NCBI GenBank assembly: GCA_947647275.1
Contig: CANSJQ010000001.1
Location: 319,046 to 383,045 of the forward strand
Reading direction: 5' to 3'
Source of the DNA: an uncultured Clostridiaceae bacterium
Lineage (GTDB): Bacteria > Bacillota > Clostridia > TANB77 > CAG-508
DNA: 64,000 nucleotides
In this document: piece by piece, positions 2,571 through 46,402 of the stretch
Position numbering within the stretch: the stretch's first letter is position 1
Layout: every line of letters starts with the position of its first letter
Notes under the pieces: model-generated
What the model saw: only the letters and a program-made list of their open reading frames with translations
What the model was told of the DNA's origin: nothing
The model's database searches: none
Translations under genes and position numbers: made by a program

Positions 2571-3257
2571 TTATACAACATACAATAGAATACAAAGAAA
2601 ATGCAATAAATTTCCTAAAAATATAAATATATGGAAAACAGAATGAATATATTTATGCTTTTTCCCAATTCCATATAATACAGCTCCAATAGTATAAATA
2701 ATACCACCAAGAAGTAAAAGTACAAATCCAGAAATAGTTAATAAACTAGGTAATATATTAATTTTAACAATAATACACCATCCCATTAAAAGGTAACAAA
2801 CCATAGAAAGCACCTTATATTTTTTAATATCAATAGAATTAAAAATAATACCTAAAATAGCAGCAAGCCAAATAATAGCAAGAATAGAATAACCAGTTAT
2901 AGGGTTATATTCTCTTAATGTGCATAAACAAAAAGGAGTATATGAACCAGCTATTAAAATAAAAATAGAACAATGGTCTAAAATTTGAAAAACTTTTTTA
3001 GCCTTAAGTTTAGGACTAAGCCCATGATATATACTAGACATTGAGTAAAGTAAAATCATAGAAAAACCAAAAATAATACCACTAACAATGCCATAAACAT
3101 TATTGTGAATACCCGCAAAAATAGGTACCAATATAAGGGCAATAGCACCTAAAGCACCACCCACAATATGAGTAACCATATTAAAAATTTCCTCACCTTT
3201 TGTATAAGAAGGTAAAACTCTATCATTCAATTTCGTTCTTTCCAAATAAATCAACAC
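2571..3257 (-). CDS. Hemolysin III family (PAQR/YqfA-like) channel protein
   Basis: 228-aa seven-TM protein with the typical HlyIII signature (HxxGG, SSIYH). Confidence 0.8.
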   Translation of the reverse strand: MLIYLERTKLNDRVLPSYTKGEEIFNMVTHIVGGALGAIALILVPIFAGIHNNVYGIVSGIIFGFSMILLYSMSSIYHGLSPKLKAKKVFQILDHCSIFILIAGSYTPFCLCTLREYNPITGYSILAIIWLAAILGIIFNSIDIKKYKVLSMVCYLLMGWCIIVKINILPSLLTISGFVLLLLGGIIYTIGAVLYGIGKKHKYIHSVFHIFIFLGNLLHFLCILLYVV

Positions 3258-4988: not shown

Positions 4989-5250
4989 TAAATAAAAAGC
5001 AAACAAGTAAATACTAAATATCATAAAAATGATAGTAATAGTAACATTTAACTGTACAGAAGAATTAAGAGAAGAGTGGGAAAATATAGGAACTTTATAA
5101 CAAATTCACTATTAAAAAAAATGCTATGTAGTAGTTAAAAAATATTGCAAAAAAAAGTGAAATTATGTAAAATTGTTGAGAATCTAGAGAAAATATGGTA
5201 TAATAAGCTTATCTTGTTAACTAATATTATTGAAAACGGAGGAAACAGCA

Positions 5251-6030
5251 ATGAAAAAGAAAATAATTTTATTTTTATCTGTCCTTTTAATAGCCATGTT
5301 TTTAACAGGCTGTGTATCAGTATCAATTACTACAAATCCTGAAAATTCAGAGGATAATGTAATAGTAATTGATAATCCATTTGCAAATATAATAGGTAAA
5401 AAAGAACTTAAGGAATATGATGAAAGAAAAACTGAAATAGCTGAAGATGTGGAAAATATAATAGTAGATTCAACAATAGCAGATGTTAATATTTCAGTTT
5501 CAGATTCTTCAAACATTGAAGTACATTTCTATGGAGAAGCAAAACTTGATAATGATCTTAATCTTGATATCGAGCATAAAAAAGATGATGTTATAATTAA
5601 ATTAAAGTATAATGGTACATCTGTAAATGAAAATTTGAAACTTGATATAAGCATACCAAATAACCAATATAATTTAATTAAGGTAGAAAGTGCCTCAGCC
5701 AATATTAGTTTAAGTGAATGTATTTCGGCAAAGAGAATTGAGTTAAATACATCATCAGGAGATGTAATAACTGATGCAACATTTGTTGAAACTAATATTT
5801 CCACAATGAGTGGAGATGTTGAACTTTACATTAATTCCAATGAAGATATTTCAATGGATATTTCTACAATGAGTGGTGATATATCAATACAAGTAGATAA
5901 TATTGATAGTATTGATTTTTCAACTTCAACAATGACTGGAGATATTAGAAATAAGCATGAAGGAAGCTTGGGAGGATATAATGCAAAAGGAGAACTTTCA
6001 ACGATGAGTGGAGACATAATAGTAAAATAA
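5251..6030 (+). CDS. Lipoprotein with repeated STMSGD(I/V) beta-solenoid-like repeats (DUF4097/putative adhesin-like)
   Basis: Signal peptide with lipobox LTGC. RBS ggagg 7 nt upstream of ATG 5251. Internal STMSGD repeats. A hairpin terminator follows at 6038..6080. Confidence 0.7.
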   Translation: MKKKIILFLSVLLIAMFLTGCVSVSITTNPENSEDNVIVIDNPFANIIGKKELKEYDERKTEIAEDVENIIVDSTIADVNISVSDSSNIEVHFYGEAKLDNDLNLDIEHKKDDVIIKLKYNGTSVNENLKLDISIPNNQYNLIKVESASANISLSECISAKRIELNTSSGDVITDATFVETNISTMSGDVELYINSNEDISMDISTMSGDISIQVDNIDSIDFSTSTMTGDIRNKHEGSLGGYNAKGELSTMSGDIIVK

Positions 6031-12070: not shown

Positions 12071-12123
12071 AATATTACTAAATAAAAATTTATTGTTACA
12101 TTAAAATAATTTGTTTTTGTTAT

Positions 12124-12182
12124 AAGGGCTTAATCGGTTAGAATACACATAATAAATACCGAATAAAGCCCTTAATATTTTT
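12124..12182. repeat. Terminator-like hairpin repeat, copy 1 of 3 (GGGCTTAATCGGT ... ACCGAATAAAGCCC plus T-run)
   Basis: Near-identical elements at 46346..46402 and 60824..60882. Confidence 0.7.
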
Positions 12183-16518: not shown

Positions 16519-16872
16519 TTATATTATTTCAGTTATCTTTAAATTAAATTTATCCTCAAAGACTTTCTTTTTAGCAATATATTCCTTAGTTTTAAAACCT
16601 TTAACATCAATAACTTCAGTAGAGCCATCTTTATGAAAAACAATAAAGTCAGCCTTATATTTTAAACTAGGAGCTAAAATAAAAGTAGGCTGCAAACAAA
16701 AACCATTAATTTCTTTTGCTTGTAATTTTAATTTAAGTTCACAATAATAATCAGCTTCTTTTTGACTATCAAAAGTATGACCATCAACAGAAGCCTTATT
16801 GGCTCTATATTTACTTTTTCTTTTCTTACTATCTGTAAAATTTTTATAATCCTCAACACTCCAATGTTCCAT
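16519..16872 (-). CDS. DUF1064 family protein (phage-associated)
   Basis: 117 aa. Pattern G.TFDS..EA..Y..L....KA..I......QP.F ... ADF typical of DUF1064 from Firmicute prophages. Confidence 0.6.
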   Translation of the reverse strand: MEHWSVEDYKNFTDSKKRKSKYRANKASVDGHTFDSQKEADYYCELKLKLQAKEINGFCLQPTFILAPSLKYKADFIVFHKDGSTEVIDVKGFKTKEYIAKKKVFEDKFNLKITEII

Positions 16873-16935: not shown

Positions 16936-17027
16936 TAGTGACAATGGGACGGGGTTTTTGTCACTACCATTTTAGAATTTAATATAACTGAAATAGTAGT
17001 GACAAAAACCCCGTCCCATTGTCACTA
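16936..17027. repeat. 92-bp perfect hairpin: 32-bp inverted repeat (tagtgacaatgggacggggtttttgtcactac) with a 28-nt spacer. Each arm is itself palindromic.
   Basis: Exact reverse-complement arms at 16936..16967 and 16996..17027. The right arm overlaps the stop of the 17025..17459 gene. Confidence 0.8.
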
Positions 17028-17459
17028 CAAATATTTTTTTAAAGTTTCAATACTATCTTCTTGCATAACAACAAAATCATTTAAAACATTTTTCACATCT
17101 TTATCAGCATTAGGATTTTGATTAATAAGTCTTCTACCTTCAATAATACCCATATTAGTTCCTTGCATTAATAGTTCAGAAAGCTTAGAATTACTATTAT
17201 CAGCAATAGTTTTCATTTGTACACCATACCAAGTCATAGCTTTATTCATAGCATTTGTTTCATGAGGCTCTTTGCTACTAAAATTAGAATATATATCATT
17301 AACTCTATTAGATATTTTTTTGTATTTATTATATTCAATGTCTAAGACTTCCTTAAAAGTATCATCCTTAACTTTTTCTGAAACAAAAGATATTGCATCC
17401 ATTCCCATAGTAGCACCTTTATTAATTTCATCTAAAATATTTAAATTTTGATTTTCCAT
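17025..17459 (-). CDS. Hypothetical helical (ferritin-like/DUF2383-like?) protein
   Basis: 144-aa ORF with RBS. Weak resemblance to four-helix-bundle stress proteins. Confidence 0.35.
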   Translation of the reverse strand: MENQNLNILDEINKGATMGMDAISFVSEKVKDDTFKEVLDIEYNKYKKISNRVNDIYSNFSSKEPHETNAMNKAMTWYGVQMKTIADNSNSKLSELLMQGTNMGIIEGRRLINQNPNADKDVKNVLNDFVVMQEDSIETLKKYL

Positions 17460-33082: not shown

Positions 33083-33964
33083 ATGGAAAAACAAGTTAAA
33101 CTTTTTTTGGAATTTCTTCAAAATGATAAGAAAGTATCAGATAATACTTTACAATCTTACAGAAGAGATATTGTGTATTTTACCAAATATGTAGAAGAAG
33201 GTAATATGAACTATGCAAAACTAGATGAACAAGATATTAAAGATTATCTACAACATTTACAAGAAGTAGGAAAAAAATCTTCAACAGTATCAAGACATTT
33301 AGCATCAATAAGATCTTTTTATCAATTTTTAGTAAAAAATAAAAAGGTAAAAGTAGATCCAACAAATAATATTCAATCACCAAAAGTTGAAAAAAGAACA
33401 CCAAGTGTATTAACAGCACAAGAGGTTGAATTATTATTAGAACAACCAAAAGATATAGATTTAAAAGGGACTAGAGATAAAGCAATGTTAGAATTTGCAT
33501 ATGCTACTGGAATGAGAGTAACAGAAATAATATCTCTAAATATAGAAGATGTAAACTTAGAAGAAGGATATGTAGTATGTAAAACAGGTTCTAAAGAAAG
33601 AAATATTCCTTTAGGAACAATGTCTTTAAAAGCTTTAAAAGAATATGCAGAAGAAGCAAGACCAGTATTAATCAGAGATGAAAGTGTATCAGCATTATTC
33701 GTTAATATAAATGGTCAAAGATTAACAAGACAAGGTTTCTGGAAAATAGTTAAATTCTATAAAGAACAAGCTCATATTACAAAAGATATAACACCACACG
33801 TATTAAGACATTCATTTGCAACACATCTTTTACAAAATGGAGCAGACCTAAAAGCAATACAAACAATGTTAGGTCATTCAGACATATCTTCAACACAAGT
33901 ATATATGCAATTCCAAAATGATGGTTTAAAAAGTGTATATAAAAATGCTCACCCAAGAGCATAA
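33083..33964 (+). CDS. xerD: Tyrosine site-specific recombinase XerD
   Basis: Phage-integrase N-terminal SAM-like domain plus the catalytic R...HxLRH...Y block (HVLRHSFATHLL, LGHSDISSTQVY). Confidence 0.9.
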   Translation: MEKQVKLFLEFLQNDKKVSDNTLQSYRRDIVYFTKYVEEGNMNYAKLDEQDIKDYLQHLQEVGKKSSTVSRHLASIRSFYQFLVKNKKVKVDPTNNIQSPKVEKRTPSVLTAQEVELLLEQPKDIDLKGTRDKAMLEFAYATGMRVTEIISLNIEDVNLEEGYVVCKTGSKERNIPLGTMSLKALKEYAEEARPVLIRDESVSALFVNINGQRLTRQGFWKIVKFYKEQAHITKDITPHVLRHSFATHLLQNGADLKAIQTMLGHSDISSTQVYMQFQNDGLKSVYKNAHPRA

Positions 33965-36830: not shown

Positions 36831-39464
36831 ATGGGTACAAATAATAAGAAAAAAAGAACAACTAAAAAAGGAAAAAATGAAGTAGAAAAAACAAAAAAAT
36901 ATGAAACAAAAAAAGTAAATAAAAAGAATAAAAAAAGTAGAAAAATCTTAAAGAAAGTATTACTTGGACTTATTATTTTTGGAGTAATAGCAGCTACTAT
37001 ATTAGTTGCAGTAGTAATAGGTATATTTTCAAGTGACAAATATAAAGTAGACCCAAAAGAAGTACATGTTGAAAATGGAAATAGTCAAGTTGTAGATGCA
37101 GAAGGAAATGTACTTGCAATAATAAGAGGGGATGAAAATAGAAAATTAGTAACCTTAGAAGAAATGCCAGAATATTTACCAAAAATGTTTGTTGCATTAG
37201 AAGATGAGAGATTTTATTCTCATAAAGGAATAGACATAAAAAGAACAATTGGAGCTACAGTTGGTTTTATATTTGGAAAAGGTAGTTCTTCATATGGTGG
37301 AAGTACAATAACACAACAATTAATAAAAAATTCATTTGAAGATAATGAAAGTTCAGGATTAGGTGGAATTCAAAGAAAAATAAGAGAAATGGCTCGTGCA
37401 CGTAATACAGAAAAGGTACTATCTAAAAACGAAATATTAGAATCATATTTAAACTTAATACTAATGGGTGGAACATATTATGGAGTTGGTGCAGCATCAC
37501 AATATTATTTTGATAAAGATGTCAGTCAGTTATCACTTGCAGAATCAGCCTTTTTAGTAGCGATAAATCCATCACCTAATGCATACAAAGCATTTAGTAC
37601 AGAACAAAAAGATATAGATAAAATAAAAAATAAAACTAAAGTAGTTTTAGCTAAATTTAAGGAAGAAGCTCCTAATTTAGAATACGAATTAACAGAAGAA
37701 GCATATAATACAGCAGTAGCTGAAGTTGAAACAGGTTTAGCCTTTAAAGAAGGAAGAATGGTAACAGGTGCGACTTCATACTCATATCATACAGCAGCAG
37801 CAATAGAACAAGCAATAAGTCAATTAATGGAAGAAAAAGGTTTAAAAAGAGATGCAGCAGAATTAGCTATTAGAAATAATGGATATATTATACACTCAAC
37901 ACAAATAACTTCAATACAACAAATAATGGAAGCAGAATATGTAAAAGATAGATATATAGTAAATGGAAAAGAAAAAGACAAAAATGGAAAATTATTAAAT
38001 GAAGGTCATACACAATCTGCTATGGTTATAATAGAGCCAACTACTGGTTATGTAGTAGGATGTATGGGTGGCTTAGGAACAGATTCAAATGCAGCAGGAA
38101 TAAATAGAGCAACAACCAGCAACAAACAACCAGGTTCATCAATAAAACCAATAGGTGTTGTAGCACCAGCATTAGAAGCAGGAACTATAACAGCAGCAAC
38201 AGTATATGATGACTCAGCAACAGTATTTAAAGGAGGATATAATCCACATAACTCAGGAGGATTCAATGGCCTTCTTACTGTAAGACACGCAATTGAACAT
38301 TCTTCAAATATTGTTAATATTAAAATACTTTTAGATTTAGGCCCAAGTAAAGGCGCAGAATTTTTGAGAAACATGAATTTTAAAAGAATATCAGATGATG
38401 ATATAGGAGCTTCGTTTGCGTTAGGAGCAACAAGCGCAACACCACTTGAAATGGCATCAGCATACGCAATGGTAGCAAATGATGGTGTATATATAGAGCC
38501 AACATTCTATACTAAAGTAGAAGATTCAGAAGGAAATGTTGTATTAGAAGCAAAACAAGATACAAAACGAATTATGAGTACAGAAAATGCATATGTATTA
38601 AAAGAGATTTTAACAGCACCAGTAACTGGAGCAGGAGGAACAGCTACAACTTGTTGGATAAAAGGAATGGAAGTTGGAGCAAAAACAGGTTCAACAGATA
38701 AATACAAAGACAGATGGTTATGTGGAATAACACCATATTATGCAGCCGCTACTTGGTTTGGATTTGATAATCAAGAAAGACCACAAGGAATAAGCGGAAA
38801 TGCAGCAGCAACTATTTGGGGAAATGTTATGAGAAGTGTTCATACAAATCTTCCAAGTAAACGTTTCACAAAACCAGCAGGAGTTGTAACAGCTAAAATA
38901 TGTTTAGACTCAGGTTGTGTTGCAACCGAAAGTTGTGCAAGAACAGAAACAGAATATTTTGTAAAAGGAACAGTTCCAGGAGCATGTGAAGGACATCAAA
39001 AATTAAAAATATGTAAAGAAACAGGTAAAATAGCTAATGAATATTGTAAAGAAGTTGAAGAAAAAACATTTTTAACAAAACCTGCAAAAGAAAATACATC
39101 ATTATGGACAACAAATGCAGGAGACAAATATAATGTACCAACAGAAAATTGCGATGTTCATAAAGCACCAGAAAAGAAAGAAGTAGAAGTTCCAAATGTA
39201 ATAGGAAAAAAATTAGCAGATGCTAAAAAAGCATTAGAGGCAAAAGGATTAAAAGTAGAAATAGTATATGAAGAAAATAAAAATAAAGATGACGGAATAG
39301 TACTAAAACAAAGCAAAGAAGAAAAAACAAAAGTGGAAGAAGGAACAACAATAACAATAACTGTAAATAAAAAGAAAAACAAACCACAAAACGAAGAAGA
39401 ACTACCAGAAAACACAGTTGATACAAATACAGAGAATAACACTAATAATACAACAGTTAATTAA
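36831..39464 (+). CDS. ponA: Class A penicillin-binding protein 1A (glycosyltransferase plus transpeptidase plus C-terminal PASTA)
   Basis: EDERFYSHKGID and GGSTITQQ glycosyltransferase motifs. SSIKP, SSN and KTGST transpeptidase motifs. PASTA VPNVIGKKLADAKKALEAKGLKV. Confidence 0.9.
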   Translation: MGTNNKKKRTTKKGKNEVEKTKKYETKKVNKKNKKSRKILKKVLLGLIIFGVIAATILVAVVIGIFSSDKYKVDPKEVHVENGNSQVVDAEGNVLAIIRGDENRKLVTLEEMPEYLPKMFVALEDERFYSHKGIDIKRTIGATVGFIFGKGSSSYGGSTITQQLIKNSFEDNESSGLGGIQRKIREMARARNTEKVLSKNEILESYLNLILMGGTYYGVGAASQYYFDKDVSQLSLAESAFLVAINPSPNAYKAFSTEQKDIDKIKNKTKVVLAKFKEEAPNLEYELTEEAYNTAVAEVETGLAFKEGRMVTGATSYSYHTAAAIEQAISQLMEEKGLKRDAAELAIRNNGYIIHSTQITSIQQIMEAEYVKDRYIVNGKEKDKNGKLLNEGHTQSAMVIIEPTTGYVVGCMGGLGTDSNAAGINRATTSNKQPGSSIKPIGVVAPALEAGTITAATVYDDSATVFKGGYNPHNSGGFNGLLTVRHAIEHSSNIVNIKILLDLGPSKGAEFLRNMNFKRISDDDIGASFALGATSATPLEMASAYAMVANDGVYIEPTFYTKVEDSEGNVVLEAKQDTKRIMSTENAYVLKEILTAPVTGAGGTATTCWIKGMEVGAKTGSTDKYKDRWLCGITPYYAAATWFGFDNQERPQGISGNAAATIWGNVMRSVHTNLPSKRFTKPAGVVTAKICLDSGCVATESCARTETEYFVKGTVPGACEGHQKLKICKETGKIANEYCKEVEEKTFLTKPAKENTSLWTTNAGDKYNVPTENCDVHKAPEKKEVEVPNVIGKKLADAKKALEAKGLKVEIVYEENKNKDDGIVLKQSKEEKTKVEEGTTITITVNKKKNKPQNEEELPENTVDTNTENNTNNTTVN

Positions 39465-39488
39465 AAATAATAGATAAATGTAAATAGT

Positions 39489-39532
39489 TGTAGGGGCGCA
39501 GCCTTTTGCGACCTGCACTTCGAATGAATTAC
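39489..39532 (+). repeat. REP-like element (tgtaggggcgcagccttttgcgacctgcacttcgaatgaattac)
   Basis: Family member. The 3' tail CTTCGAA..AATTAC is shared with the 41187, 45301 and 46519 copies. Confidence 0.7.
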
Positions 39533-39544
39533 TTAAAATAATCT

Positions 39545-39665
39545 ACCTTATGTGTTTGTATATATTAAAATAAAAATCGAAACGTCCAAGACAAGGGGTA
39601 TTCAACAACCTTAGAAGGACTGTCGGGATTCAATTTTGATTTTAATATATACAAACACATAAGGT
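39545..39665. mobile_element. MITE-like 121-bp element, copy 1. About 35-bp terminal inverted repeats ACCTTATGTGTTTGTATATATTAAAATAAAAATCGAA.
   Basis: Second copy at 41258..41378 with the same TIRs and a related GC-richer core (ccaagacaagggg / ccaggacaaggggg). Confidence 0.65.
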
Positions 39666-39712
39666 TACTCTACAAATTCTAATTACTACTATTATTATTG
39701 TTAGATTTAAGA

Positions 39713-39754
39713 TGTAGGGGTAGGCGCTTTAAGTCTACCAAAACTTCGAAGAAA
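39713..39754 (+). repeat. REP-like element (tgtaggggtaggcgctttaagtctacc aaaacttcgaagaaa), 16 nt upstream of the cysS RBS
   Basis: TGTAGGGG head, GGTAG/CTACC stem, CTTCGAAGAAA tail. Confidence 0.65.
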
Positions 39755-39769
39755 GGAGAAAAAACGTAA

Positions 39770-41173
39770 ATGGAATTAAAACTATACAACACCTTAACAA
39801 GACAAAAGACAGAATTTAAACCATTGGAAGAAAAAGAGGTTAAAATATATACATGTGGGCCAACAGTATATAGTTTTGCACATATAGGAAACTTTAGAGC
39901 CTATGTATTTATGGATACTTTAAGAAGAGTTTTAAAATATAATGGATATATTTTAAAACATGTAATGAATATAACTGATGTAGGACATTTAGAATCTGAT
40001 GCCGATGATGGTGAAGATAAAATGGAAAAAGCAGCTAGAAAAGAAAATAAAAATCCATATGAAATAGCAGCATTTTACACAGATATATTTTTTAGAGATA
40101 TGGGTAGACTAAATATAGAAAAACCAGAAATAGTAGCTAAAGCGACAGAACATATTGAAGAAATGATGCAATTTGTAAAAAAATTAATAGAAAATGGTTA
40201 TGCTTATGAAACATCAAAAGGTATTTATTTTGATATATCAAAATTAGATAAATACCCAATACTTTCTAATAGAAAACTAGATGATCAAATTGCAGGAGCA
40301 AGAGTTGATGTAGATATAGAAAAAAGAAATCCATATGATTTTGCGTTATGGATAAAAGCACCAGAAAATCATATTATGAAATGGGAAAGTCCATGGGGAT
40401 TATCATATCCAGGTTGGCATATAGAATGTTCTGCAATGGGAAAAAAATATTTAGGTAATGAGTTTGATATTCATACAGGTGGAGTAGACCATATACCTAC
40501 ACATCATGAAAATGAAATAGCACAAAGCAAAGGATGCACAGGCAAAGTTCCAGCAAAACGTTGGATGCATGTAGAATTTTTACAAGTTGATGGTGGAAAA
40601 ATGTCTAAAAGTTTAGGAAATACATACACTCTAGACCAACTACAAGAAAAAGGAATTGAACCATTAGCATATAAATTATTTTGTTATACAGCACATTATA
40701 GAACAAAATTAAATTTCACATTTGCAGGAGCAGAAGCTAGTGAAAAATCATTAAATAGACTTCGCCAAAGTTATTTAAAACATGAAGAATCAAATAATGA
40801 AGTAGATGACAAAATAGTAGAAGAATATTTAAACCGTTTTGTAGAAGCTATAAATGATGACTTAAATATGCCACTTGCAATGGGAATAGTATGGGAAGTT
40901 GCAAGAAATGATATAAAGTCTAATAAGTTTGCTAAATTGCTTTTAGAATTTGATAAAGTATTAGGTTTAGACTTAGTAAACACTAGAGAATATTTAGAAA
41001 AAGAAGACAAACAAGAAGTTCCAGAAGAAATACAAAAATTACTAGAAGAGAGAAAAGTCGCTAGAGAAAATAAAAATTGGGCAGAATCAGATAGGATAAG
41101 AGATTTGTTAAAAGATAAAGGCTATACAGTAAAAGACACTAAAGAAGGGCAAACAATAGAAATCATAGTATAA
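39770..41173 (+). CDS. cysS: Cysteinyl-tRNA synthetase
   Basis: HIGN (HIGH) motif, KMSKS, characteristic Zn-binding C residues. RBS aaaggag. Confidence 0.95.
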   Translation: MELKLYNTLTRQKTEFKPLEEKEVKIYTCGPTVYSFAHIGNFRAYVFMDTLRRVLKYNGYILKHVMNITDVGHLESDADDGEDKMEKAARKENKNPYEIAAFYTDIFFRDMGRLNIEKPEIVAKATEHIEEMMQFVKKLIENGYAYETSKGIYFDISKLDKYPILSNRKLDDQIAGARVDVDIEKRNPYDFALWIKAPENHIMKWESPWGLSYPGWHIECSAMGKKYLGNEFDIHTGGVDHIPTHHENEIAQSKGCTGKVPAKRWMHVEFLQVDGGKMSKSLGNTYTLDQLQEKGIEPLAYKLFCYTAHYRTKLNFTFAGAEASEKSLNRLRQSYLKHEESNNEVDDKIVEEYLNRFVEAINDDLNMPLAMGIVWEVARNDIKSNKFAKLLLEFDKVLGLDLVNTREYLEKEDKQEVPEEIQKLLEERKVARENKNWAESDRIRDLLKDKGYTVKDTKEGQTIEIIV

Positions 41174-41186
41174 AATTTAAAATAGA

Positions 41187-41240
41187 TGTATGGGTAGGCC
41201 TTGTGTCTACTAGTCATCCGAAGAAATTACTAAAATAAAA
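41187..41240 (+). repeat. REP-like element variant (tgtatgggtaggccttgtgtctac tagtcatccgaagaaattac)
   Basis: TGTATGGG head. The stem gggtaggccttgtgtctac is the reverse complement of the 49466 copy. Confidence 0.6.
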
Positions 41241-41257
41241 GAAATTTAAAATTAGTC

Positions 41258-41378
41258 ACCTTATGCATTTGTATATATTAAAATAAAAATCGAAATCTCC
41301 AGGACAAGGGGGATTCGACTGTTGAGGGTGGTCTGTTGGACTTCAATTTTGATTTTAATATATACAAACACATAATGA
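41258..41378. mobile_element. MITE-like 121-bp element, copy 2
   Basis: TIRs CACCTTATGCATTTGTATATATTAAAATAAAAATCGAAA ... TTCAATTTTGATTTTAATATATACAAACACATAATGA. Confidence 0.65.
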
Positions 41379-41425
41379 AGAGTGAATAGTACAAACCTTC
41401 AGTTTGAGAAAGGAAAAAACATAAA

Positions 41426-42463
41426 ATGCAAACCAAGGAAAATACTTTTATAAAAAAATTAATAAGTAGCATAAAAGATTTTGAAAAATACCCAGAAATG
41501 GCAGTAGAATCTTTTAGAAATGTTTGTAAATATATAGTAATGCTAATTGCGATATTTACATTAATAGTGACAGCATTATCAGTATATGATGTATCAAAAG
41601 ATATAAATAGTGGAATAGAATATTTTAAAAACGAAATACCAAATTTAAGTTTTTCAAATAATAGGTTAACAGTAGAAACAACTGAACCTATAAAAATAAC
41701 TAATATTCCAAATGTGTTTGATATGCTTATTATAGATACAAATGAATTAACTAATGAGCAAATAAATTCATATGAGTCAGAGCTAAAGAAACATAGTACA
41801 GGAGCAATACTTTTATCTGATAAAGTAATTTTGAATTTAGGAAATGGAGCTATAACATATACGTATGAAAAATTAGTACAAAGTTATAAAATACAAGATA
41901 TGACAAAAGAAACTATATTAAATTACTTATCAGGCTCTAATATGATAATGATATATGTAGGAATATATATAATGTCATATATATACTTATTTATAGCCTA
42001 TTTAATAAGCATATTTATGGATATAGTAATATTAGGAACAATAGGATATGTTACAGCACTAATAATGAGAATAAGAATAAAATTTATTGCAATGTTAAAA
42101 ATAGCAATACATTCACTTACTTTGCCTATTATTTTAAATTTATTGTATATAATAGTACAAGCATTGTTTGGATTTAAAATAAAATATTTTGAAATAATGT
42201 ATATAGCAGTTGCTTATATATATATTGTTGCATCAATTTTAATGATAAAATCAGATATAATAAAAAGAGGACAAGAACTTGCTAAAATAGTAGAAGAACA
42301 AGAAAGAGTAAAACAAGAATTAGAGAGAAAAAAAGAAGAGCAAAGACAAAAAGAGGAAGAAGAACAAAGAAAAAAGCAAGAAGAAAAAGAGAAGAAAAAG
42401 AAAGAGAAGAAGGAAAAGGAAAAAGAAGGTTTATCAGGACAGCCACAAGGTGAAAATGCATAA
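41426..42463 (+). CDS. Polytopic membrane protein with KE-rich C-terminal tail (DUF1189-like?)
   Basis: Several TM helices. C-terminal EEQRQKEEEEQRKKQEEKEKKKKEKKEKEKE low-complexity tail. Immediately upstream of ftsH. Confidence 0.4.
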   Translation: MQTKENTFIKKLISSIKDFEKYPEMAVESFRNVCKYIVMLIAIFTLIVTALSVYDVSKDINSGIEYFKNEIPNLSFSNNRLTVETTEPIKITNIPNVFDMLIIDTNELTNEQINSYESELKKHSTGAILLSDKVILNLGNGAITYTYEKLVQSYKIQDMTKETILNYLSGSNMIMIYVGIYIMSYIYLFIAYLISIFMDIVILGTIGYVTALIMRIRIKFIAMLKIAIHSLTLPIILNLLYIIVQALFGFKIKYFEIMYIAVAYIYIVASILMIKSDIIKRGQELAKIVEEQERVKQELERKKEEQRQKEEEEQRKKQEEKEKKKKEKKEKEKEGLSGQPQGENA

Positions 42464-45390: not shown

Positions 45391-45532
45391 ATAAAAAATT
45401 ATAGATGTGTATATTAGAAAATCTATATAAAATAAACATAAAATTATGTAAAATTATTGATATATTAATATGAAAATGATATAATATTATCAACTTGTAA
45501 ACCAATATCATAGAAAAATGGAGGAAACAGCA

Positions 45533-45910
45533 ATGAAAAAGAAAATAATTTTGTTTTTATCTGTCCTTTTAGTAGCAATGTTTGTAACAGGCTGCTCAAC
45601 AACAACCAATCCTGAAGCATTAGAAAGGTCAAATGAAGTTGCAAATGAAATAGCCAAAAATATGGGAGAGTACAAACTTCCTGATGGATACGATATCTCT
45701 TATCGTGACTCAAAAGATACAAGCCGGTTTTATTTAAGTTCTACAACAGAACAAAAAAATACATTGATGGCAGAGTATCAAATATCAAACAAAGAAGCAG
45801 ATTTAGTGGCTTTTACAGTTGATGATGGTAAAAATGTGATATATTTTGATATAGGTGTAGTTTTATTAATAGTTGGTATTCTTATTGGATGTTATATAAT
45901 GTACAATTGA
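45533..45910 (+). CDS. Lipoprotein with C-terminal TM segment. Its promoter, RBS and signal-peptide region are duplicated from the 5251 gene.
   Basis: MKKKIILFLSVLLVAMFVTGC lipobox. About 80 nt (RBS through the lipobox) is near-identical to 5236..5320. Confidence 0.6.
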   Translation: MKKKIILFLSVLLVAMFVTGCSTTTNPEALERSNEVANEIAKNMGEYKLPDGYDISYRDSKDTSRFYLSSTTEQKNTLMAEYQISNKEADLVAFTVDDGKNVIYFDIGVVLLIVGILIGCYIMYN

Positions 45911-46324: not shown

Positions 46325-46345
46325 TGTGTAATTGAATAAAAAATG

Positions 46346-46402
46346 TAGGGGCTTAATCGGTAAGGAATACCCGTTAGAATTACCGAATTATGCCCTTTTT
46401 TG
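46346..46402. repeat. Terminator-like hairpin repeat, copy 2 of 3 (tgtaggggcttaatcggtaagg...taccgaattatgccctttttt)
   Basis: Carries the TGTAGGGG head, which links this family to the REP-like family. Confidence 0.7.

Follow-up and report, generated by a model that had tools for sequence, protein, structure and literature searches.

An intergenic palindromic repeat family found on both sides of cysS in an uncultured gut Clostridiaceae bacterium

What is the 121-bp palindrome that stands on either side of cysS, the cysteinyl-tRNA synthetase gene, in an uncultured Clostridiaceae bacterium, and how did it come to be there twice? The window analysed here is a 64,000-nucleotide stretch of that organism's chromosome (assembly GCA_947647275.1, contig CANSJQ010000001.1, positions 319,046 to 383,045), and a sequence-only reading of it had proposed a transposable element of the miniature, inverted-repeat class (MITE), a structured small RNA gene family, or a substrate for recombination by which cysS might be excised or inverted. 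Proteobacteria commonly carry small palindromic repeats, which reshape operon expression, seed rearrangements and break assemblies; to our knowledge such repeats have been charted much less in gut Clostridia, a group represented for the most part by metagenome-assembled genomes (MAGs) alone. We find that the palindrome belongs to a previously undescribed family, here called the C element, that is restricted to a few uncultured gut Clostridiaceae and is of a kind already familiar. Its members are dispersed, gained and lost, exchanged between copies, reduced by central deletion and locked in orientation. The reading that we favour, and hold to be probable though well short of certain, is that of a lineage-restricted, non-coding, palindromic intergenic repeat family, non-autonomous and akin to MITE, ERIC and Correia elements, inserted at TTAAAA and co-transcribed with its neighbours.

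The two copies lie on the plus strand, where the earlier reading had placed them. Copy 1 (39545-39665, 121 bp) ends 104 nt 5' of the cysS ATG (39770), copy 2 (41258-41378, 121 bp) begins 84 nt 3' of the cysS stop codon (41173), and the 467-codon open reading frame (ORF) of cysS (39770-41173, + strand, from the ORF list) fills the space between them. They are 84% identical over a 181-column alignment, form direct repeats spaced 1713 bp apart whose arms can also pair in inverted orientation across cysS, and are the only copies in the window. The inverted-repeat arms are real and 37 nt long, with 95% complementarity in copy 1 and 86% in copy 2. A 28-nt arm pattern allowing up to three mismatches matched the window four times, against no match in 100 dinucleotide shuffles, and the hairpins fold with z-scores of -4.7 to -10.6 under RNA parameters and -5.7 to -11 under DNA parameters. 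In copy 1, complementarity and folding delimit the left arm (39545-39581) and an inverted-repeat search the right arm (39629-39665), which enclose a GC-richer, variable core of 47 nt (39582-39628) assigned to 'type II' by alignment and core comparison; the family alignments add a 5' flank (39533-39544; the family-invariant TTAAAAT, then AATCT, for which the family consensus is AAGCC) and a conserved 3' tail (TACTCTACAAATTCTAATTACTACTATT..., 39666-39699, end approximate), all on the plus strand. Copy 2, also on the plus strand, has the corresponding 5' flank (41246-41257; TTAAAAT, then TAGTC), a left arm (41258-41294) identical to the orthologous left arm in a sister species (L023 and L024), a variable core of 47 positions delimited by strain comparison (41295-41341) and, according to the alignment, a right arm (41342-41375) without its outer three pairs and without the whole 3' tail. 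Its pairing ends at ...CATAA (41375), so that the final 3 nt of the 121 lie outside the palindrome, and a TGAAGAG/TGAATAG heptamer stretch (41376-41389) abuts the right arm directly.

Copies are not confined to cysS. A degenerate 25-mer derived from the arms, scanned against one genome per species, hit five MAGs, which bear the label uncultured Clostridiaceae or Clostridia, at 12 loci in all. Four of these belong to CATLFA, the MAG of the window's own species, two being the cysS copies (L014 and L020) and two lying elsewhere (L012 and L015), so that the genome search suggested by the sequence-only reading did return further copies in the same species. A profile search of the loci (nhmmer) added four truncated copies, of which two are 'mini' forms with the palindrome centre deleted and two consist of the right-arm end and tail only. 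The element thus occupies at least 10 unrelated chromosomal sites in five species-level MAGs, the count per genome being a lower bound. As expected of a repeat, Logan contigs end inside the arms (L009, L010 and L025). A scan of viral contigs and blastn searches of phages and plasmids found nothing similar, and an exact 23-mer from the right arm had no match in a metagenome-contig collection.

The family alignments (12 full copies with flanks, and a second set of 15 distinct versions) also redraw the limits of the element. Conserved sequence runs past the palindrome by 12-13 nt on the left (TTAAAAT-AAnCC) and by about 34 nt on the right, so the earlier reading had the palindrome correctly and stopped short of the unit, which is asymmetric and about 155-170 bp long: TTAAAAT-AAGCC, the hairpin, and then a tail reading TACTCTACAAATT..ACTATTC-TAAAA. 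The family's right end is TACTCTACAAATTnTAATTACTACTATTC, often closing with TAAAA; of the 12 full copies 11 possess the 3' tail, as does every one of the four truncated copies, copy 2 being without it. On the left, the flank columns ATTTT(A/T)A, viewed on the minus strand, are invariant in 15 of 15 rows. The palindrome itself consists of two AT-rich 37-bp arms around a GC-richer variable core of 45-47 nt; pairwise identity is 0.91-1.00 in the arms and 0.53-1.00 in the cores, which group into about three types. There are 38 pairs in the consensus fold and, since the arms are so nearly uniform, scarcely any covariation; pairing mostly survives changes on a single side, and a mirrored double deletion in L019 keeps the register. 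No ORF conserved across the family was found, and a 31-codon minus-strand ORF in copy 1 shifts frame in the other copies, as read by eye from their sequences.

Presence at a given site varies between close relatives. The gene order penicillin-binding protein (PBP)-cysS-DUF1189-ftsH is kept in CysS homologues at 96, 95, 87, 85 and 82% identity. Among the relatives compared, the cysS-upstream copy occurs only in the window's species: the upstream spacers of the 96% and 95% relatives measure 94-143 nt and carry a hairpin resembling repetitive extragenic palindromic (REP) sequences together with heptamer or hexamer arrays, and that of the 82% relative is 20 nt long. The downstream copy is shared with the 96% CATLDI-like species (L023-L025) and is absent from CAPNDH (95%; L026 and L027) and from the 87, 85 and 82% relatives, the spacers there being 20-159 nt. 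Elsewhere, CAMXOP carries the element at the L019 site, which is empty in CATLDI and holds a hairpin-less remnant in CATLFA; three species carry it at site S3, which stands empty in the outgroups L089 and L040. Because the element is absent where the genes are kept, it is dispensable.

Copies also replace or convert one another, as the core types do not follow orthology. Two loci of one species at one site (L023 and L024) differ in core type alone, the L023 core being that of L016 at another locus; orthologous sites S3 and S7 differ in core type between species; nearest cores come from other species and from sites that are not orthologous; and the nearest relative of the copy 1 core is that of the cysS-downstream copy in the sister species (L024, identity 0.85). 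The arms behave differently. Compared with its two closest relatives, the window's species shows an identity of about 0.80 at the four-fold degenerate sites of cysS and DUF1189, and despite this the arms of the orthologous cysS-downstream copies show no difference over about 71 nt. Either copy exchange or selection keeps the arms uniform. Decay, judging from the sequences of the shortened copies, proceeds by loss of the middle of the palindrome. Across nine strains whose CysS is identical, four of the 47 core positions of copy 2 are polymorphic, all by transitions, compared with 0/74 positions in the arms, 3/1404 in cysS and 1/131 in the remaining non-coding DNA downstream. This makes the copy 2 core a local polymorphism hot spot, and deamination in a single-stranded loop is a possible source of the transitions. 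In a strain with identical CysS (L009, Logan SRR7968811), 227 nt upstream of cysS are missing, from about 39497 to about 39723 of the window; the variant (at about 2919-3000 of its locus) has lost the C element and the spacer together with the body of the REP-like unit that comes first. Its junction falls in a TGTAGGG common to two REP-like heads, not at the element ends, which is probably a deletion by recombination or slippage between those heads; we read it as secondary because the 96% relative has the first REP-like unit at that place.

The copies share a constant orientation. Each of the 16 full and partial copies, which represent at least nine independent sites, has its nearest upstream gene on its own strand, and the downstream gene is there as well, except for a spurious overlapping ORF (L011) and a convergent gene (L018-2890). 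The spacers concerned separate housekeeping genes, including cysS and the rplI-dnaB pair, the latter identified by reading the locus sequence. Most copies sit directly 3' of a REP-like unit (TGTAGGGG, a GC hairpin, CACTTCGAAGAAATTAC) whose 3' end merges into TTAAAAT, and a second such unit often lies 3' of the element. The REP-like hairpins that the earlier reading had noticed beside each copy are accordingly real. One unit (39489-39532, + strand; TGTAGGGG, GC hairpin, CACTTCGAATGAATTAC; REP-A hidden Markov model (HMM), E = 4e-5) runs at its 3' end into the TTAAAAT of copy 1; another (39713-39753, + strand; pattern scan and REP HMM), between copy 1 and the cysS ribosome-binding site (RBS), supplies with its TGTAGGG head one endpoint of the 227-nt deletion in L009; and a third (41187-41230, + strand; TGTATGGG, hairpin, CCGAAGAAATTAC) lies between the cysS stop codon and copy 2.

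The element is likely to be a structured part of the operon transcript. Rfam gave no match in the window at the gathering threshold, and permissive thresholds added no real one: the best sub-threshold hit, mir-466, scored 20 bits where 85 are required (E = 1.4) and is noise. Promoter- and terminator-like sites are not enriched around cysS, those promoter-like sites that occur on the minus strand have no consistent position across copies, and an intrinsic terminator scan of 39300-41600 returned no site. Past the hairpin, the gene-sense strand continues with UACUCUACAAA, and on the minus strand AUUUUAA stands 5 nt from the AU-rich stem. With no Rfam match, no conserved promoter on either strand and a variable core, the suggestion of an independent structured small RNA gene finds no support. 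Since the element has no promoter or terminator of its own and lies in operon spacers, it is probably co-transcribed with the genes around it. The transcript would fold into a duplex of about 37 bp that, by analogy with Correia and ERIC elements, RNase III might cut or that might block exonucleases; such a duplex would make the stability of the cistron upstream independent of that of the cistron downstream.

As to how the copies spread, we infer that the C element is, or lately was, a non-autonomous mobile element moved or copied by an enzyme acting in trans. TTAAAA is invariant at its 5' end, a TTAAAA-like hexamer closes the tail in about 6 of 11 copies (read by eye from the alignment), one TTAAAT stands at the equivalent position of the empty site L026, and many REP-like units end in ...ATTAC-TTAAAA. 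Insertion would occur at TTAAAA, offered by the 3' end of REP-like units, and would leave TTAAAA-like hexamers at both element ends. The MITE label proposed by the sequence-only reading survives in part: the element is short (well below the limit of about 400 bp for MITEs), non-coding, multi-copy and dispersed, with polymorphic presence, and departs from a classical MITE in that its inverted repeats are subterminal and not at the very ends, its orientation is locked to that of the genes, and no transposase or cognate insertion sequence (IS) was found in the scans described here; no clean target-site duplication could be shown in the spacer comparisons. 

Several observations weigh against this reading. 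The ends are not inverted repeats of each other, which is atypical for DDE-type MITEs, and in the spacer comparisons (cysS, L019 and S3) no clean filled/empty junction or clean 6-bp target-site duplication could be shown; these comparisons are blurred because the spacers have been rebuilt by REP-like units and by arrays of TGAATAR heptamers and GAAGTTGG hexamers. TTAAAA could simply be part of the element. As for an enzyme, tblastn with Y1 transposases (IS200, IS608 and the E. coli RAYT), using approximate query sequences, gave no match in about 1.2 Mb comprising the window, the loci and 947 kb of REP-bearing contigs; Pfam or NCBIfam scans of 38 ORFs in the window found housekeeping genes and no transposase family; and in the genome arm scan no two arms were separated by a gene, every single-arm match being a complete short element. 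The sole recombinase match among the window ORFs is XerD-like (33083-33964) and, as it adjoins spoIIM, is read as the chromosomal Xer. At several sites two or three species carry the element in orthologous positions, and much of the family is therefore old. Most copies were found through an exact 25-mer arm match, which inflates arm conservation and under-counts diverged copies; the synteny-derived comparison of the cysS-downstream orthologues is free of this bias. Finally, the invariance of the arms could stem from selection at the level of the host and not from recent movement.

That last possibility can be set out as an alternative of its own, in which the C element is a host-selected cis element, either a DNA site (a cruciform, a bent AT-tract or a site bound by a nucleoid or other protein) or a module for mRNA processing or stability, retained through purifying selection on the arms and spread chiefly by recombination between spacers. 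It would account for orthologous arms that are 100% identical where neutral sites are at about 80%, for an arm sequence that is itself invariant and does not covary, for the restriction of copies to housekeeping-operon spacers such as those of cysS and rplI-dnaB, and for the preferential retention of the right-arm end and tail by truncated copies; ERIC elements reportedly pose a like puzzle of conservation without evident mobility (Wilson and Sharp, in 2006). We nevertheless think it unlikely, given that the same spacers in close relatives do without the element while keeping the genes, that cores are freely swapped and deleted, that there is no evidence for any binding protein, and that recent replacement or gene conversion would yield arm identity equally well. 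Another proposal that the outside chance must be granted to is a single-stranded DNA element of the REP/RAYT or IS200/IS605 type (HUH, Y1), in which an enzyme common to the REP-like units would recognise a hairpin with asymmetric flanks and the fixed orientation would come from insertion into the template of the lagging strand. RAYTs go with GTAG REPs, and 'TIRYT' genes with families that have long terminal inverted repeats (TIRs) (PMC3733652), and Y1 transposases act on single-stranded DNA at the lagging-strand template (PMC6006769). Asymmetric ends, one dominant hairpin and constant adjacency to GTAG-tagged REP-like hairpins all agree with this, as does a minus-strand GTAG(AG) that 10 of 12 copies have at a distance of 5 nt from the foot of the hairpin; so does the orientation locked at nine or more sites, the plus strand being the leading strand in the window, where GC skew is positive throughout (+0.07 to +0.22). 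Yet the approximate Y1 and RAYT queries returned no ORF from the window, the C-element loci or the REP-bearing contigs, the C-element GTAG lies on the strand opposite that of the REP-like units, which would make it the leading-strand template, contrary to the IS608 model, and an AT-rich palindrome of 121 nt is unlike REPs of 20-40 bp. The tail of the C element (minus strand) had looked convincingly homologous to the REP-like leader by eye, and this candidate was dropped when a leader HMM did not bear it out and shuffles placed the similarity at chance level (p ~0.04-0.6).

We consider it highly improbable that the elements are antisense small RNA genes, transcribed on the minus strand from the tail through the long hairpin to an end at the AUUUUAA run. 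The minus-strand RNA fold is stabler than the plus-strand fold in 12 of 13 copies, by 3-19 kcal/mol, the AUUUUAA 3' of the hairpin is invariant, and TAnAAT-like hexamers lie just upstream of the hairpin in several copies (e.g. CTAACA-17-TAGAAT, 39704-39676). The energy gap, however, arises at three ancestral mismatches of the arms, where the minus strand has G.U and the plus strand A.C, and these are shared, not independent, positions; singleton arm mutations favour neither strand, and under DNA folding parameters the asymmetry is gone, a result that also removes it as an argument for a single-stranded DNA element. Promoter-like sites are inconsistent in position or quality across copies, and the empty terminator scan, the want of an Rfam match, the variable core and the unconserved frame of the 31-codon ORF likewise speak against such genes. 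The minus strand was set aside as the functional RNA, and we assign a function to neither strand. To a local duplication of the cysS regulatory flanks, or a cassette that inverts or excises cysS, we give practically no credence. The geometry, with direct repeats 1713 bp apart and arms forming inverted pairs across the gene, would suit either; the duplication proposal would leave only two copies with a conserved leader or trailer, whereas copies occur at many unrelated loci, relatives are without the element at cysS, and copy 1 is closer to the downstream copy of a sister species than to copy 2. Nor is there a sign of recombination at the arms: the order and orientation of cysS are the same in 12 of 12 loci (L001-L010, the ten metagenomic loci that matched this exact CysS protein, and L014 and L020 of the representative MAG), core orientation relative to the flanks is constant in 12 of 12 full copies (98-175 bits, versus 27-64 bits for the opposite strand), so that flipping between arms is not seen, and the sole structural variant, L009, joins two REP-like heads.

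A bolder proposal, which we would be surprised to see borne out, treats the C element and the GTAG-headed REP-like units as one REP/BIME-type mosaic of low-GC Clostridia, in which an as yet unseen HUH or other site-specific enzyme would insert at TTAAAA and the hairpin would act as an orientation-locked signal for mRNA processing. If this were true, REP/RAYT-like biology would extend to a phylum not reported in PMC3733652, and a very highly conserved 5' untranslated region (UTR) module, the 72-nt REP-like unit, would be defined. Under the preferred reading of a non-autonomous intergenic repeat, no general concept is changed. The family accounts for contig breaks around housekeeping genes in these assemblies, offers strain-level markers in its filled and empty sites, core types and polymorphic core, and, together with the 72-nt GTAG-headed unit, provides a tractable case in which to study the spread of such repeats and their possible tuning of mRNA processing in Firmicutes.

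The REP-like units may merit study in their own right. Within the window, GTAG-headed hairpins of this kind lie at 21654, 30080, 39490, 39714, 41188, 49302 and 49371 on the plus strand and at 21813 on the minus strand. A pattern scan found them on at least 120 metagenome contigs (loci L035-L154, 947 kb), with a median GC content of 28.6% among the matches listed; there the unit is a 72-nt module (GATAGTGTAAAGTAATCTATGAAAAA-TGTAGGGGCGATTTTAATCGCCCGCAC-TTCGAAGAAATTACTAAAAAA) that by eye is highly conserved at unrelated genes, and nearly all the listed copies have the same sense as the gene downstream, whose RBS they precede by 10-25 nt. In L080 it follows a TTGACA-17-TATAAT promoter and in L043 a T-box leader. 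The 72-nt unit had no Rfam match, and no Y1 transposase was found near it among the matches listed. A second family of GTAGGGG-headed palindromes, 'REP-B' (GGGCTTAATCGGTAAGGAATA...TACCGAATTAnGCCC), occurs in the window at 12120-12173, 46345-46400 and 60819-60872 and also in L013, L018, L021, L022 and L026, and often adjoins the C element in other species. Tandem arrays of TGAATAA/TGAATAG/TGAAGAG heptamers and GAAGTTGG hexamers are found in the cysS spacers and in others (41376-41389 in the window, upstream of cysS in L023 and L025, downstream of it in L026, and in further spacers of L026 and L012); the hexamers sometimes form inverted arrays around a REP-like core, and the arrays take the place held by the C element elsewhere. 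A search for the flanks without the hairpin, as a pre-existing target unit, found none save one remnant in L012, and that candidate was set aside.

The remainder of the window (27.6% GC) is an ordinary spore-former chromosome, with genes for RNase Y, RNase R, SmpB, UvrA/B, PBPs, tyrosyl-tRNA synthetase, SpoIIM and the XerD-like recombinase. The GC content and the gut origin had raised segmented filamentous bacteria as a candidate host, but nothing was found to support this, and their genome paper reports no repeats of this sort. T-box leaders are common upstream of cysS and tyrS in Firmicutes, and at the Rfam gathering threshold none was found upstream of cysS (39770) or tyrS (21820) here. The region upstream of tyrS holds two inverted REP-like units (21654 on the plus strand and 21813 on the minus strand), and in the related contig L043 a T-box lies beside such a unit. 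Two segments 40 kb apart (5137-5312 and 45418-45594) carry a duplicated promoter-like region and the first ~60 nt of a lipoprotein-like ORF (MKKKIILFLSVLL...), with 94% identity over the coding start and 70% over the upstream 100 nt. A 40-nt inverted repeat with a 12-nt loop and 95% complementarity (16936-17027) lies between a DUF1064 ORF (phage-associated; 16519-16872) and a 144-codon ORF without a Pfam match (17025-17459), a region that may be a prophage remnant. The UvrA-like ORF (57690-59432) matches model positions 3-577 of 943 and the UvrB-like ORF (52728-54578) begins at model position 40; these genes may be split or frameshifted, or their start codons may have been missed by the ORF lister.

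Among known systems, REPs, BIMEs and REPINs resemble the C element in their single-strand hairpins and in orientation and strand specificity, and the C element takes part in mosaics with GTAG-headed hairpins, as in BIMEs. A REP has GTAG at one end of a short, GC-rich palindrome of 20-40 bp, and families with long 'TIRs' are linked to tyrosine transposases (PMC3733652), a study that covers Proteobacteria, Cyanobacteria, Chloroflexi and PVC and in whose text Firmicutes and Clostridium are absent. A REPIN is a doublet of two REPs, whereas the C palindrome is AT-rich and 121 nt long, no RAYT, a gene that such repeats typically flank, was found in the sequences searched, and its GTAG and that of the neighbouring REP-like units are on opposite strands. 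PATEs derived from IS200/IS605 elements, which have neither inverted repeats nor a duplication and insert 3' of a fixed tetra- or pentanucleotide, differ in having two subterminal hairpins where the C element has one; the fixed TTAAAA at one end of the C element is compatible with a fixed target of that sort and is not diagnostic of it. Within the Firmicutes, bcr1 of the Bacillus cereus group, about 155 bp long and with no identified transposase, is a transcribed repeat (PMC3184786). It shares with the C element its size, non-coding nature, structure and patchiness between close strains, has short direct repeats at the ends like the candidate ones here, and differs in having two independent stem-loops instead of one long palindrome, 5-bp direct repeats and no sequence similarity.

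The ERIC and Correia elements are further parallels, though by sequence the C element is a member of none of the families named here. ERICs are strictly intergenic and lie in transcribed spacers, have a moderate copy number, no known transposase and variants with internal deletions or insertions, and are conserved between species; the C element is likewise intergenic, conserved between species and represented by internal-deletion variants. ERICs occur in both orientations, whereas the orientation of the C element is constant. The two are similar in size, ERIC/IRU sequences being imperfect palindromes of about 127 bp (PMC3184786, Table 1), and both are imperfect palindromes with a distinct centre; they share no sequence, belong to different phyla, and differ at their termini, ERICs having TA at both (PMC3184786) and the C element being asymmetric with TTAAAA-like hexamers. 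The Correia (NEMIS) elements of Neisseria are MITEs of 104-157 bp with promoters and a site for integration host factor (PMC3184786). Their 26-bp repeats stand right at the ends and are accompanied by a TA duplication, neither of which is shown for the C element, nor are the promoters and the host factor site, and the copy number of the C element is apparently far lower. In both families, long inverted repeats lie in operon spacers and size variants arise by internal deletion; the repeats form mRNA hairpins in Correia elements and would do so in the C element. De Gregorio et al. reportedly described cleavage of Correia elements by RNase III, and the effects of these elements on transcript processing serve as the model for the mechanism proposed here for the C element.

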